DNA of 64,000 nt, from assembly GCA_040389905.1 (NCBI GenBank), contig JAZJZK010000013.1, forward strand, positions 19,651 through 83,650, written 5' to 3'. The position numbers were made by a program. This stretch comes from Gemmatimonadota bacterium. GTDB taxonomy: Bacteria; Gemmatimonadota; Gemmatimonadetes; Gemmatimonadales; Gemmatimonadaceae. Of the stretch, positions 45,001 through 51,000 are shown in pieces (positions within the stretch are counted from its first letter, which is position 1; the number at the start of each line of letters is the position of its first letter).

Positions 45001-48000
45001 GAGCGTCGTCGTTCTCCGCGGCACAGGCTCTCGATGGACCGTCTGCTGACCGCGTGCGGCAGGCGTTCGCCAATCGCGATGAGATCTTCCGCCGCATGGA
45101 ATCACTCGGCAAGCAGCTGCCGAGTTCGCAGCGTGAGGAGATTTCCCGGTCGGCGATGGCGTTGGCAGACAAGGTGCAGTCGTTGGCACTGGCGCTCGAT
45201 GAGAGTTCGCGCATGGATGTCACCGGAATGCGCGCGCAGCTCGAGCGTGAGATCACGACGCTGGAAAATGCGGCAAATCCGCTGGAACGGGGCAGCGAAG
45301 ATCGCGTGCGGCGTTTGGCGTATCTGAAGCGGCAGCGGCGGTCGCTGGTCGACACCGAGCAGCGGAGCACGTCACTCGAGTCGAAGCTCGAGACCTGCGC
45401 GCTCGCACTCCAGAACATGCGCTTCGATCTCATGCGGCTGGGCGCAAGTCCGCAGATGCATCAGCACATCACGGGACTTGCCCATCAGGCGATGAGTCTC
45501 GCCGACAATGTGGACGAAGCCATCTTCGTCGCTGATGAGATGGGTCGCCTTGGTGGCCGGCCTAGTTCCGGCGGACGCCGGTCGGACCGAGGGTGACCGA
45601 CTACCTGCTCGACCGGCTCGTCGCCGCGGTCGGGACGCAGTATCTGGTGGACGCCGAGATCGGGCGCGGCGGAATGGCCGTCGTCTATCGCGCCACCGAC
45701 CTGCGCCTCCACCGTCGCGTCGCGATCAAGGTGCTCCCACCGGAGCTCGCGTTCAACGCCGATGTCCGCGAACGATTTCTTCGCGAGGCGCAGACGTCTG
45801 CGCAGCTTGCGCACCCGAGCATCGTTCCGATCTACACGGTGGATGAGCGGGAAGGGATCGTCTACTTCGTCATGGCGCTGGTGGATGGGGAGAGTCTCGC
45901 CCAGCGTCTCGCCCGCGAGCCACGCCTCCCGATTGCCGAAGCGCGCCGCATTCTCTCGGGCGTCGCCGATGCGCTCGGCTATGCGCATTCGATGGGTGTC
46001 GTCCATCGGGACGTGAAGCCGGACAACATCATGCTCGACCGTGCGAGCGGGCGTCCGATGGTGACCGACTTCGGTATTGCGCGCGCTGCGCAGGGGGATA
46101 CCCGCCTCACCGTCACGGGCGTCGCGATTGGCACGCCCGCATACATGTCGCCGGAGCAGGCGCTCGGCGAGCGAGAGCTCGATGGACGCAGCGACGTGTA
46201 TTCGCTTGCCGTGATTGGCTATCAGTTGCTCGCAGGTGAGACGCCATTCAAGGCGTCGAACACACCCGCGATGCTCGTGAAGCACGTGTCGGAAACGCCG
46301 CGCCCACTCGCGATGTTGCGGCCGGATGTTCCGTCTGGCCTCGCGCAATCGATTCTTCGCGCATTGGCGAAGAAACCAGAGGACCGCTGGCCCGACGCCA
46401 ATGCATTTCGAGATGCGTTGCTCGATACACGTGAGGCAGTGCGACCATCACAAGAGTGGACACCGGCGAAGCCGGTGCCGGCGCCGCCTCTTTCGAGCCA
46501 TACGCACGACAGTCGCCACCGCTACGACGATCCGGCCAGCGTGCCGTATCCGGCAAGCGTGCCGTATATGGGGCCGCAGCGTCCACCTGTACCGACGTGG
46601 CAGCCGCACCTGTTGCCGCCCCCGATGCCCGCCATGCCGCCGATGCCCCCGGTACCGGTGTGGGGCAGCAAGGCGGATTGGCGCGAATGGAAGCGTTCGA
46701 AGCGACGCTGGGATCAGGAGCAGCGCCAGCGCTATCGTGCGATGCGCCACGGCGACGACCACGACTATCCGGGTTTGACGCTGGATGAGCGGCTGGTTCG
46801 CTTTCGCCGGAACGCCATAGGAAGTTTCGCGACCGTTGCGTCCCTTGGCGCGGTCAATCTGCTCACGTCGCACTATCCGTGGTTCCTCTTTCCGAGCGCG
46901 TTTATCCTGATCGGGGTGGTATCTCGTGCCGGTAAGCTCTGGGCCGATGGGATCCCGGTTGCTCGCCTCTTCCGGCGTGGAGATCCCGGCGTGGAGCGCG
47001 CGGAGATGGCGAGCATGCCGCGCATGTCGATCTCCGAGGCGGCGCAGCGCCTGGCGCCGTCCGACGTGCTCGATGGTCCGTATGGCGAGGTGGTTCGCCG
47101 GGCGGCGAGCGATCATGTGGCCGTGCGCGAGACGCTGCAGCGACTACCGAAGACGGAGAGCGACATGATTCCCGACGTGGCGCCGACAGTTGATGCGCTC
47201 GCGGAGCGCGTCGGCGCGTTGGCAACGACGCTGCATCGTCTGGATGCCGATGTTGGTGGCGCGTCTTTGACGTCGCTCGATGCGCGTCTCGCCGCGTTAC
47301 GCAACGAGATGCGGAACGGTCCAACATCCGAACAGGAGCGACGCGTCGCGCTCCTGGAGCGCCAACGCGTGTCGATCAGTGAGTTGACAAGCCGAAGGGC
47401 CGGCCTGTCGTCGCAGCTCGAGAGCGCCGGCCTGGCGCTTCAGAATCTCCGGCTCGACCTGTTGAAGCTGCGTTCGTCGGGGTTGGAAAGCGCGATGTCG
47501 GACGTCTCGAGTGCGACGCAGGAGGCGCGCGCACTTTCGCGAGAGATTGGGAACGCGGTGGACGCCGTGCGCGAAGTGCGTCGGCTCTAAGGTCTGCACC
47601 TTCCGCTGTTCGCCGCGGCTGGCGCAAGCAAACCCGTCACCCCGAGCGAGCGGAGCGACCAAATTGTCACCCCGAGCGAGCGGAGCGAGTCGAGGGGTCT
47701 GCACCTTCGGCCACGGCGATTGGAGCCAGATCGTCCCACGCTGGGTTTGTCGACTCTATGAGCGCGATCTTCTTAGCGCGCCGCCAGTTCTTCAGTTGCT
47801 TTTCACGCGCAATTGCAGCCCATACGTCGGAGGTACATTCGACGTACACGAGCCTGGTACAGTCGTACCTCGTCGTGAATGCGACCATGCCCGCGCGATG
47901 TTCGTAGAGGCGTCGAGTGAGATCGTTGGTCATACCGACGTAAACGGTTCGCGACCGGCTGCTCAACATGTAGATGAAGTACGTGTACATGCGGTGAATG

Positions 48001-51000
48001 ATCACGCAGCCGTGTCTCACGTGCGTCATCATTTCAACGCAACCATCATCAGAACAGCGTGAGGTGCAGACCCCTCGACTCGCTCCGCTCGCTCGGGGTG
48101 ACAATGCTCGCGGTGCTCGCCACGACAAACAGCGTGAGGTGCAGACCCATCGACTCGCTGCGCTCGCCCGAGGTGACAACGCTGCTTGGGTGACTACCTA
48201 TCGCAGCAAGAGACCAGAGAGCACATCCGCAATCACGCGCGGCGCATCTTCCGGCGTAAAGTGCCGGGAATCCGGCGCAATATCGAACGTCGCGCCCGGG
48301 ATTGCTGCCGCGAGGCGCGCGCCGAGCGAGAGTGGAAGAAACGGATCATGCTCGCCCCAGATGACTGCCGTGGGCGCCGCGATTTCGTGAAGGCGAGTGG
48401 AAAGCGCAACCGTCTCGCGCGAATCGAGCGCCGCCAGGTGTTGCAGCAGTACCATGCGTCCAGCGTCACTGTTGAACGGGCGCTGATAGCGATCGATGGA
48501 ATGCTGTGCCCGCGGCGGATCGTAGTAGCCCCGCTCGAGATCCGCGCGTGCAATGGGGAGAAGCCAGTTGGTGGGTATCGTCCGCACGATCGGCAGCAAC
48601 CGGCGCATGATGCGCAGGTCACGCTTGGGCCACTCGCTGAACGCAACGCTGTCGATGAGCGCGAGTCTCGAGACCCGCGTTGGCCAGTTCAGGGCGAGTG
48701 ACTGCGCGACGCCGCCGCCAAGGTGATGTCCAACGATGCACGCGTTGGAAATGCCAAGTGCATCCATGAGGCCGACGACGAGCGTCGCGTGCGCGTGCAG
48801 CGTAAGGGCACGAGTGCCCGGCGGATCGCTGCGACCGTATCCCAGCAGGTCGACGACGACGAGCCGATGTCCGGGCGGCATCTGGGCGACGACATCTCCC
48901 CACAGGTGGCCCGATGTTGGAAAGCCGTGCAGAAAGACGACCGGTTCACCTGCGCCGCGGGTTCCGGCGGCATAGTAGTACAACCGAACGCCATCGACAT
49001 CGACGAACTCACCGCGCATGAGCAAGGTGGAGCGAGGAGGCGCGGAGAGCACTCATGCCGCAAGATGCGACGCGGAGCGCGCAGCACGCAACAAAAAGGG
49101 TGGCGGCGCCTTCGCGCCGCCACCCTTTACACTCGTTCCGGAAATTAGATCGCGGGCGGTGCGCCACCCGCACGTGCCGCGGCGCGCTTTGCTGCTTCTT
49201 CAACGTTCTTGTCGAAGATCGCCTGCTGCGGCGCCGTCAAAACCGCGCGAAAGTCCGCATTCTGCTTCGCCGTCACGTCCGCACGCTTCTTCATCGCGCC
49301 TTCACGGTCCGTCGCCATCAGTTCACGGATCGCCGCCATTTCCGGCTGATACTTGGTCGTGATCTCCGCAAACTTGGCCTTCTGCTCTGCCGTGATCGTC
49401 GTGCTATCGATGCCAACGAGCAGCATGGCGATACCACCACCACGGCCGCCGCGCCCACCGCCGCCACCGCCACCCTGTGCGCTCGCGGTGAGCGACAGAC
49501 CCATGACCAGCGCGGCACCGAGCGCCGCAATACGAATCGACTTCATAGTAGAACCCCTTGAAAGAATGATGGACGTGCAGTGCTTCCTAAGTTGTGTATC
49601 TGTAGTAACTTACACATGCCCCTCTAGCGGCAGAGGGCAAAATTCGTCAACTTTCGCCGCTTATATCCCAAGGCGTTCTGCCCGGCGCCGCCATGCGACT
49701 CTGGTCTGACTGCTTGCCCGAGAGCCCCACGTGACCCTGCCGTCGCCACTCAGCAATCCCATCGTACCCGCAGCAGGCGCAACTGTGCCTTCCGCGGCCG
49801 TTCCCCCCACGCCGACCGCGCCACCAACACCGCCTGGCCCGGTTCGATTTCCTCTGGATTGGTTACTCGCGCACGCGGCAGCGCCCATTCGATATCGCGC
49901 CTTGACTGAAGTCGCGCGAATCAATGCGGGGGATGCCGAGAAGGTGTCCGCACTACCCCTTACGCATCGAGACGCGCTCCTGTTGGCTTTGCAACAGGCT
50001 CCCGACGGAACCTGGGCTGGCGGTATGCTCAGCCTCCCGTCCGGTCGCGACGATCGGTTCGAGGGAATCGGGACCATTCCCGCTGTCCGCAGGCTCATCG
50101 AATACGGATGGAGCAAGGAGACGCCGCCCCTGATGCACGCGCGGCGGATCCTCTTCCGGCTCCTCGCCGAGGACGACGATCCGTCGTTCCTCTTCGAGTT
50201 GGCCGAGCAGAACGCGAGCGACGAAGATTCGGTCAAGCGGGGTCGAACGCTGCTCCGCGAAGCCGCGGCGGCGGCGCTCGCGCAGGCGGGGTACGAGGGT
50301 GATCCGCGGCTGCGTGGCGCGGCACGCCGTATCCTCAACCGCATGGCGGACTACCTGCGCTCGCCTTTGGCGCAGAAGCCATTTATCCGGCAGGGCAACC
50401 AGCACATGCTCGCCGCAGAAGCGTGTCCGCCTTCCATTTACGCGATCACCATGCTCGCGTACATGCCACTCTTTCGCGCGGAGCATCACCGCGAAATGGA
50501 TGCGTTGTACGCGCACCTCGTCCAGCCGCAGCCGCGTCAGGAAGCCGTGCAGCTCTGTGGCAAGCTCGTGCTCCCCGTACCGCACCTCGTGCTGGGCGAT
50601 CCGCTTCCGCATCGCAACGCCGTCGATGCCGATGTTCCCTACGCCCTGTACTGGATGGAATTGATGGCGCGGCTTGGGTATCTCAAGCGGAATGAGAACT
50701 GGTCCAAGCTCTTCGAGCGCTTTCTCGAGGATCGCGACCGGGACGGCGTGTGGCATCCGCACAAAGGCATGGCGGCTCCCACGACCACGAGTGCGCACGC
50801 ATGGCCGACCTATCCCCTCGAGACCCAGCTGGCGGGCGACGAGCGGTGGACCGACATCACGTTCCGCCTTGGCCTGATCGCGCGCCTGTCAGGACGCGTG
50901 ATCGAGATCGTCTGACGACCACGGCGGACGGCGACGAGCCGCGTCTGCGTGGTCGCCTGGATCCGGCGGAGATGTTCCCCGCCGGATCCTCGTATATACG

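Follow-up and report, generated by a model that had tools for sequence, protein, structure and literature searches.

An Ssn-type nuclease cassette in Gemmatimonadota and a candidate promoter dyad common to DNA-uptake genes

The window analysed here, a 64,000-nucleotide stretch of the genome of a Gemmatimonadota bacterium (contig JAZJZK010000013.1; source genome G000, assembly completeness 84.6%), contains a gene for a 107-aa GIY-YIG protein that is enclosed by perfect inverted 44-nt REP arms (Table 1). Judged by homology, this gene is an Ssn nuclease of the published family (PMC11893778), and new here is a 20-bp dyad that, at the sequence level, seems to be common to cassette genes and DNA-uptake genes. 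We consider it reasonably probable that the gene and its arms make up a small, selfish cassette of the Ssn kind already published, that such cassettes are switched on together with the competence genes, and that the repeats spread via host recombination.

Results

An Ssn nuclease gene in the loop of REP arms

An earlier note on this DNA had placed the GIY-YIG gene in the loop of inverted arms of the genome's main REP, and this was borne out: the arms are fully complementary, and G000 contains 129 copies of the 33-nt arm core at up to six mismatches, against none in three shuffles. PF01541 is the only domain that profile searches found in the protein. As a proxy for N. meningitidis SsnA, we used an N. 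gonorrhoeae protein of 94 aa that has seven NTS copies on its flanks; the window protein is 47% identical to it across 85 aa (E 5e-17 in the search, 9e-27 pairwise), its Y7, Y17 and E63 align with the catalytic Y6, Y17 and E64, and the catalytic glutamate is invariant in all 14 sequences aligned. Of the features that define Ssn membership, the window gene shows a single domain of about 95-110 aa, homology at E < 1e-10, the catalytic residues, and cognate dispersed CGTC-type flanks. A PDB sequence search returned nothing but distant UPF0213 proteins. Chenal et al. (2025) described this GIY-YIG family together with the CGTC-type repeats on its flanks, showed that it cleaves ssDNA and drew the analogy to IS200/RAYT-REP; for the Neisseria and Wolbachia proteins, the cut was shown to fall on the 5' side of the TGTC tag, a few bases away (PMC11893778). 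The earlier note had held that CGTC-type REPs lack a known dedicated gene and that the link between GIY-YIG gene and repeat is new; both claims are overtaken by that paper, whose Supplementary Data 4 enters its four Gemmatimonadota isolates without ssnA.

The repeat itself has the unpaired CGTC/TGTC tag and the head-to-head dimers that place it in the CGTC REP superfamily as characterized in PMC3733652. Gene-less inverted pairs number 5 by BLAST and 64 by pattern, the latter being outward-tag, head-to-head doublets of mostly 89-91 nt, with both subtypes counted. Its structure is a 5-bp outer stem around 12 or 20 nt, with compensatory CG>TA changes at two stem positions (13 and 11 of 103 copies); the 8-9-bp stem and 4-5-nt loop given for the superfamily (PMC3733652) are absent, and folding of single arms is not above shuffles (z 0.5-1.6). 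None of the 30 hits of the published degenerate SRM pattern in G000 falls on the window REP, nor did the pattern match any of 71 metagenome flanks; it does detect the Neisseria and Azospirillum loci, and the mismatch says something about the repeat variant and nothing about the protein. A second ssn-like gene of G000 is accompanied by a REP subtype of its own, with 61-79 copies.

Table 1. Features of the window (positions count along the window).
Feature	Position	Strand	Evidence or remark
Ssn-family single-domain GIY-YIG nuclease gene, 107 aa	47667..47990	-	PF01541 E 8.7e-15; last codons and stop within left arm
Upstream arm, CGTC-type (TGTC-tagged) REP, tag outward	48062..48105	-	44 nt, 100% complementary to left arm; spacing 355 nt
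Downstream (left) arm, same REP inverted	47663..47706	+	44 nt; complementarity to 48062..48105
Second upstream REP copy, 75-nt tandem duplication	48137..48179	-	91%; repeat families D1 + I2
Truncated REP half, 23 nt, 30 nt ahead of left arm	47636..47658	+	Repeat families D3 + I4
REP tail remnant, immediately 3' of kinase stop codon	47591..47611	+	Repeat families D10 + I6
20-bp dyad TGCGT-N10-ACGCA, between arms, common with competence genes	48022..48041	-	PWM 26.9
Putative -10 element, 6-7 nt 5' of GIY-YIG ATG; transcript probably leaderless	47997..48003	-	Sequence
Host Ser/Thr kinase gene, convergent neighbour	45593..47590	+	Flanking gene
Host alpha/beta hydrolase gene, neighbour	48198..49052	-	Flanking gene
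Dyad 5' of minor-pilin gene (53165-53605, -)	53636..53655	-	PWM 26.7; one of six PWM training sites
Gene-less hairpin, family of GxxExxY C15:74875 arms	2970..3106	.	Repeat-family match
Gene-less hairpin, family of four-helix-bundle C9:40401 arms	35854..36122	.	Repeat-family match
Gene-less CGTC-type REP, 5' end, 12-nt inner class	56311..56324	-	Repeat match

Two parallel cassette types

Cassettes with GxxExxY and with four-helix-bundle genes are real and form two types parallel to ssn. The GxxExxY protein has a Cas4-like PD-(D/E)xK nuclease fold and 9-nt-periodic arms, which in G000 measure 29 nt at 100% (contig C15), 37 nt at 86% (C14) and 51 nt at 88% (C2). The four-helix-bundle/S23p protein is Avd-like: its model matches Xcc0516/BT_0352 (TM 0.83-0.90) and Avd (TM 0.76-0.78), and no nuclease fold was seen in it. 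Its PF05635/TIGR02436 ORF lies within periodic inverted arms (period 7-8 nt in 23 of 25 arms), with pairs of 97 nt at 77% (C9) and 74 nt at 76% (C6:201658, a tandem array interrupted by an N gap); on recounting, the remaining three of the five four-helix genes of G000 have a repeat on a single side, as the earlier note had it. Gene-less inverted pairs, gene-bearing copy excluded, number 49 (C15), 32 (C9), 4 (C2), 2 (C14) and 0 (C6), and the four-helix copies were read as lying between protein-coding frames, outside 23S rRNA, a placement made from the reading frames with no rRNA search run. In a literature that covered subscription papers thinly, no GxxExxY-repeat, four-helix-repeat or cassette-competence link was found beyond the 23S rRNA IVS.

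Among relatives, inverted arms enclose 16/26 ssn genes (shifted controls 0/48), 21/27 GxxExxY genes (1/47) and 25/27 four-helix genes (0/49), and across GTDB they enclose GxxExxY genes at 37/53 loci in Gemmatimonadota and 17/23 in other phyla, against 2/264 controls. Each family has its own arm type: ssn flanks are CGTC-type in 22/23 cases and 9-mer in 0/23, GxxExxY flanks are 9-mer in 24/25 and CGTC in 4/25, and four-helix flanks are neither in all 24. The loci fall into distinct neighbourhood groups (ssn 23 for 27 loci, GxxExxY 21 for 27, four-helix 19 for 30), and orthologous sites in relatives lack the cassette. At least 40 REP copies are present in 17 of the 21 ssn-positive genomes versus 4 of the 32 without ssn. 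Both repeat types are abundant in repeat-rich genomes (rho 0.37), and the kin counted are not independent.

A dyad upstream of cassette and competence genes

A position weight matrix (PWM) trained on six host sites finds the dyad at a score of at least 13 before 8 of the 10 cassette genes versus 30 of the 3991 genes of G000, a figure that is partly circular because the motif was first noticed at cassette genes. The window dyad is the seventh best site in the genome, and its TGACG starts 38 nt 5' of the ATG. The dyad is also found 5' of comEA, comEC, comM, yraN, radC, pilB and pilins, and the pilins include the minor-pilin gene of the window, which is ComGD/GspH-like, under the curated cut-off. 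The dyad, shared in this way within Gemmatimonadaceae, also holds its place across the genus: in held-out relatives, a PWM score of at least 5 at the conserved position is seen for comEC (10/17), ssn (10/24), four-helix (10/25) and GxxExxY genes (19/52), against a background of 0.8-1.6% per window. The dyad appears to be a competence-linked switch of the cassette genes. The -10-like spacing, as read by eye, is similar at other dyad-bearing genes.

dprA has no dyad of its own (0/24); it lies behind obg, whose site scores 16.3 in G000. An SOS reading of the dyad was rejected, because recA, uvrA, uvrB, recN, radA, ruvB and ssb, located by motifs that did not find lexA and dinB, lack the dyad and all score below 11. 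A comF-proximal match was dropped as support for the competence link because it sits within aroE. For GxxExxY, the dyad lies beyond the arms at two of the three G000 loci, no positional peak was seen in one genus set of 26 loci, and outside Gemmatimonadota it occurs at 1 of 25 loci. No CRP-S-like site was found 5' of ssn homologs at five loci (Photobacterium, Aeromonas, Neisseria, Azospirillum, Novosphingobium), and therefore the promoter link is seen for Gemmatimonadota alone.

Signs of movement

The earlier note's generalization that each repeat family has a gene-bearing master did not hold, as the G000 assembly, which is 84.6% complete, contains no copy of the CRCRGAG family (351 matches, 137 clusters, 84 inverted pairs, every spacer <200 nt) that bears a gene. 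Genome G065 has 612 REPs, and the query used found no ssn there. Neither a target-site duplication nor a fixed end was found at the repeats: flanking direct repeats are not in excess (8.2% vs 8.6%; 3.1% vs 3.7%), the best of 49 cells held 8 observed against 3.2 expected, and the independent check comprised two isolated copies. A signal of 2 nt, lying 3 nt beyond the repeat ends, is weak when set against the number of cells examined. Contigs of three sequencing runs, one possibly from the source sample, contained no empty allele, and the arm joints resemble other repeat copies. Mobilisation of the repeats by cassette proteins is what we infer. The proposal that these gene families are mobilisers stands in part, with an own arm type per family, variable sites, empty orthologous sites and the tracking of repeat number by ssn; against it count the negative results for a target-site duplication and for an empty allele in reads, the one large family in which no master was found, and the four-helix protein, which shows no nuclease fold.

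Discussion

In the explanation that we favour, the window Ssn would, by its homology to SsnA, bind its repeat as ssDNA and cut it a short distance of a few bases to the 5' side of the TGTC tag, and GxxExxY and four-helix genes would form parallel cassettes with arm types of their own. Some common activator may turn on cassettes and competence genes jointly, and therefore the cassette proteins would be present while ssDNA enters and recombination is active. In the least supported step, host recombination would patch cut or bound hairpin ends into new intergenic sites, which would multiply gene-less copies without a transposase. As counter-points, a hydrolytic nuclease is unable to join DNA, no catalytic activity is known for the four-helix protein, and no movement was observed. 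More tentatively, Ssn, the Cas4-like GxxExxY and the Avd-like four-helix protein might each be the trans-acting factor of its own hairpin family, all tapping the host competence switch, with the repeats spreading in natural transformation and incoming ssDNA and host recombination replacing a transposase.

A less likely alternative, compatible with our favoured explanation as a side effect, is a filter on transformation that the host has domesticated, a role put forward for Neisseria SsnA, whose loss raises transformation about 5-fold (PMC11893778): the nucleases would cut incoming kin DNA at repeats and limit recombination, and the repeats, kept by selection, would spread by ordinary recombination rather than be moved by a protein. 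The dyad agrees with this, as it would place the genes in a competence regulon alongside a methylase of the Eco57I type and an SNF2/PLD gene, but ssn is patchily distributed (present in 21 of 53 relatives) and variable in site, 3 of 30 matches in relatives have in-frame stops, the second G000 copy has lost both the second tyrosine and the dyad, and the origin of hundreds of copies is left unexplained. We think it improbable that intergenic hairpins are mere insertion hotspots and the master copies chance nesting; a CGTC REP does sit in the loop of 19 of 88 CRCRGAG hairpins in G000, the junction of the C15 GxxExxY cassette has other repeats in three genomes (G008, G009, G005), and three four-helix genes have one-sided repeats, and against it stand the strict pairing of gene family and arm type, kept for GxxExxY across several phyla, and the finding that the commonest or first-listed variants in G058, G043, G044, G041 and G042 match, by eye, the arm of the genome's own gene.

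An RNA-level element, chiefly for the four-helix type, is more doubtful still: the transcript stem would be cut by RNase III as in the 23S rRNA IVS, the Avd-like protein would bind RNA and another enzyme would spread the element. In the Coxiella IVS, a 28-bp stem that carries heptamer repeats does enclose an S23p ORF (PMC4990558), and the fold matches fit, but four-helix genes have their own dyad inside the arms while the IVS ORF is reported as probably unexpressed, and SsnA does not bind RNA (PMC11893778). That the repeats are classical MITEs or REPINs, mobilised in trans by a DDE or Y1 (RAYT) transposase encoded at another locus, is very improbable despite inverted ends, many gene-less copies and the incomplete assembly, as a search confined to Y1_Tnp (PF01797) gave no match in G000, and the flanking direct repeats show no excess.

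At stake is how repeats without a transposase (CGTC REPs, 9-mer and heptamer hairpins) come to number in the hundreds. The promoter in common with DNA-uptake genes points to competence as the condition, ssDNA as the substrate and ComM/YraN/RecA as candidate partners, and would provide the first candidate competence regulon for Gemmatimonadota. The Ssn family now also covers a large clade in which the published pattern fails to detect the repeats, and GxxExxY proteins are predicted to be site-specific ssDNA nucleases too, a second such family with target sequences at hand.

The layout resembles RAYT-REPIN with unrelated proteins, a point of the earlier note that we can confirm: the G000 proteins are GIY-YIG and PD-(D/E)xK, both hydrolytic nucleases, and a four-helix protein of non-enzyme fold, without Y1 HUH. 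RAYT is a Y1 HUH transposase and can cut and join. Like REPtrons and TIRtrons (PMC3733652), the cassettes consist of one gene among cognate repeats, with gene-less doublets whose variant is that of the gene's arms. With Ssn and its NTS/SRM repeats (PMC11893778), the window gene shares the single GIY-YIG domain of about 100 aa, the catalytic positions, dispersed CGTC-type repeats on both sides and the link to transformation; unlike them, the window REP is of a long-loop type (a covarying 5-bp stem around 12 or 20 nt) that escapes the SRM pattern, and it comes with a dyad, whereas the available passages of PMC11893778 describe no competence promoter. The 23S rRNA IVS (PMC4990558) likewise has a four-helix ORF in inverted arms with heptamer repeats, but the G000 four-helix loci read as intergenic, with gene-less copies and their own dyad. 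CRP-S competence regulons (PMC1635313) also place a symmetric site overlapping the -35 before DNA-uptake genes, and in Haemophilus such a regulon is reported to carry a toxin-antitoxin passenger (10.1101/633164); here, in contrast, a 20-bp dyad with different spacing and probably leaderless starts is found in the phylum Gemmatimonadota.

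Results

A convergent kinase gene and a hydrolase gene flank the window element, and its GIY-YIG ORF is enclosed by 44-nt arms that are complementary without a mismatch, with three more copies of the arm, partial or tandem, nearby. The arm core occurs in 129 copies at up to six mismatches in the 5.08-Mb source genome (G000), versus 0 for three shuffles, and gene-less doublets of this CGTC-type REP mostly span 89–91 nt with their TGTC tags outward (64 pairs). The stem of the repeat is 5 bp, carries compensatory changes in 13 and 11 of 103 copies and encloses 12 or 20 nt; folding of a single arm was not above that of shuffles. 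The encoded protein shares 47% identity across 85 aa with a Neisseria gonorrhoeae protein of 94 aa that has seven copies of the Neisseria repeat NTS around its gene, and Y7, Y17 and E63 align with Y6, Y17 and E64.

Arms had been described at five further small-gene loci of G000, and all five were indeed armed; three of the five four-helix-bundle genes of G000 have a repeat on one side only. Gene-less inverted pairs number 49 for the family on contig C15, 32 for C9, 4 for C2, 2 for C14 and 0 for C6, and most of the named relatives of the C2 GxxExxY protein come from Gemmatimonadaceae, which suggests that the host belongs to this family. The earlier note's generalization that every hairpin family has a gene-bearing copy was not confirmed for the 137-cluster CRCRGAG family, all copies of which are gene-less in the 84.6%-complete assembly of G000, though its arm type borders GxxExxY genes in relatives. 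CGTC-type REPs also sit inside loops of 9-mer hairpins (19 of 88 in G000), forming composite elements.

Among genus relatives, for which the best 30 loci per family were fetched (three were not located), arms scoring at least 18 were present at 21/27 GxxExxY, 25/27 four-helix and 16/26 ssn (GIY-YIG) loci, as compared with 1/47, 0/49 and 0/48 shifted controls; contig-edge loci and two weak ssn matches were left out, and the ssn set takes in the second copy of G000. That copy looks like a decaying cassette. For GxxExxY loci from GTDB, arms were found at 37/53 in Gemmatimonadota and 17/23 in other phyla versus 2/264 controls. The arm type goes with the gene family: CGTC cores lie beside 22/23 ssn, 4/25 GxxExxY and 0/24 four-helix genes, 9-mer units beside 24/25 GxxExxY, 0/23 ssn and 0/24 four-helix genes, and four-helix arms have a period of 7–8 in 23/25. 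The GxxExxY fold resembles Cas4 and lambda exonuclease, with D70, E80 and K82 invariant, and the four-helix protein matches Xcc0516 and BT_0352, and Avd more weakly.

Cassette sites turn over. The 27 ssn, 27 GxxExxY and 30 four-helix loci fall into 23, 21 and 19 neighbourhood groups, respectively. Of 19 loci examined for the window site, 11 visibly had both flanking genes among the output listed, and none of these relatives had a GIY-YIG match there; gaps of 24, 53 and 194 nt are left in three, and an unrelated gene fills the site in the other eight. Among the relatives compared at this site (loci L014–L032), eight have a conserved secreted-looking gene of about 350–430 aa between kinase and hydrolase, absent from G000 here (window 47590–48198). 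Empty sites for the C2 and C9 cassettes occur in G066 and G013, and other repeats occupy the C15 junction in G008, G009 and G005. At least 40 REP matches were counted in 17/21 ssn-bearing genomes versus 4/32 without ssn, and at least 20 9-mer repeats in 36/46 genomes with GxxExxY versus 1/7 without, in counts that leave out G000 and G012 and compare relatives not independent of each other; the two loads are correlated (rho 0.37). One genome, G065, has 612 REPs, yet no ssn match with the query used. No target-site duplication was found at the repeats, whose ends look ragged because some doublets share additional flanking bases.

The cassette genes have GRTGACGC in common, usually 36–38 nt upstream of the ATG, and a genome search with this motif led to comEA, comM, yraN, two pilin-like genes and an ABC ATPase gene. 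A PWM trained on these six host sites is a 20-bp dyad (TGCGT-N10-ACGCA), with 23 sites scoring at least 19 in G000 versus 2–3 for column-shuffled matrices; sites also precede comEC, radC, a pilB-like gene and recQ, and none was seen at recA, uvrA, uvrB, recN, radA, ruvB or ssb. A dyad of at least 13 stands before 8/10 cassette genes versus 30/3991 crudely called genes, a partly circular comparison; below 13 are the degenerate second ssn and the C2 GxxExxY gene, which has the right half-site only. Site position in relatives served as the held-out test: the dyad was in position at 10/17 comEC, 10/24 ssn, 10/25 four-helix and 19/52 Gemmatimonadota GxxExxY loci (background 0.8–1.6%), and at 0/24 dprA and 1/25 other-phylum GxxExxY loci; neither a hydrolase control nor another set of 26 genus GxxExxY loci gave a peak. 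The unpublished genome G012 contributes one locus each to the comEC, GxxExxY, four-helix and window-site sets, and no conclusion rests on it.

Features of the window and of genomes G000 (source) and G008 (a relative)
Feature	Location	Strand	Remarks
GIY-YIG ORF, 107 aa	window 47667-47990	minus	PF01541, E 8.7e-15
Paralogous Ser/Thr kinase genes, tandem pair	window 43482-47590		C-terminal coiled regions alike
Minor-pilin gene	window 53165-53675		two tandem dyads, scores 26.7 and 18.1
Second ssn-like gene (L124)	G000:C7:365373-365645		56% identical; second catalytic tyrosine replaced; no dyad; flanks of own REP subtype, 61-79 copies
Four-helix cassette (L004)	G000:C6:201454-202300		right arm is an 11-nt tandem array reaching an assembly gap
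REPs nested in 9-mer hairpins, examples	G000 C23:147351, C7:141660, C7:151688, C6:107921
Eco57I-type methylase	G000 C23:90509		dyad
SNF2/PLD	G000 C5:259373		dyad
Phd antitoxin	G000 C2:75311		dyad
Clan-AA protease	G000 C64:2206		dyad
Six Uma2-like genes (PF05685)	G000 C5:267243, C14:190972, C5:108939, C6:193687, C22:89885, C3:30062		dyad at fixed 74-75 nt upstream; no arms, according to the earlier note
dprA directly after obg	G000:C27:57355-59011		apparently so in relatives too; dyad scoring 16.3, 47 nt before obg in G000
GxxExxY cassette (L393)	G008:C109		back to back with comEA, upstream of pilB
Four-helix cassette	G000		upstream of pilB

Discussion

At the level of sequence, family membership, cognate arms, site turnover and a shared dyad are established. 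The comEA, comEC and pilin genes have well-known roles. ComM and YraN function in transformation (PMC13663708). Judging from its homologs, the window protein would cut ssDNA 5' of the TGTC tag, and the motif geometry suggests an activator near −40 of leaderless promoters that would co-induce the cassettes and the uptake genes; more speculatively, host recombination might integrate cut or bound hairpin ends at other sites. A filter that acts on incoming DNA for the benefit of the host fits as well and accommodates the same data as the cassette reading, except for the copy expansion, which it does not explain.

With the window element, the published Ssn system gains a new member. Chenal et al. 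(2025; PMC11893778) showed that small GIY-YIG proteins have CGTC-type repeats on both sides in 42% of homologs, cleave ssDNA a few bases 5' of the hairpin and reduce transformation about 5-fold, and they proposed an IS200/RAYT-like origin for the repeat expansion. The earlier note held that CGTC-type REPs lack a known dedicated gene, but the statement that they have no dedicated transposase, made in 2013 (PMC3733652), is older than this work, in which the link of gene and repeat, called new in that note, is already published for GIY-YIG. The window repeat differs from that system in its 5-bp stem around 12 or 20 nt: the published SRM pattern misses the window REP in G000 and matches 0/71 metagenome flanks, although a CGTC-type core is present in 65 of these and inverted arms in 36. 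For the four-helix layout, the Coxiella 23S IVS (PMC4990558) and CPR rRNA insertions (10.1101/2024.02.27.582315) provide precedents. Our literature searches found neither intergenic GxxExxY or four-helix cassettes in print nor a report of the dyad regulon or of cassette genes within one. What goes beyond the published system is the existence of GxxExxY and four-helix cassettes built in parallel, together with the inferred link to competence.
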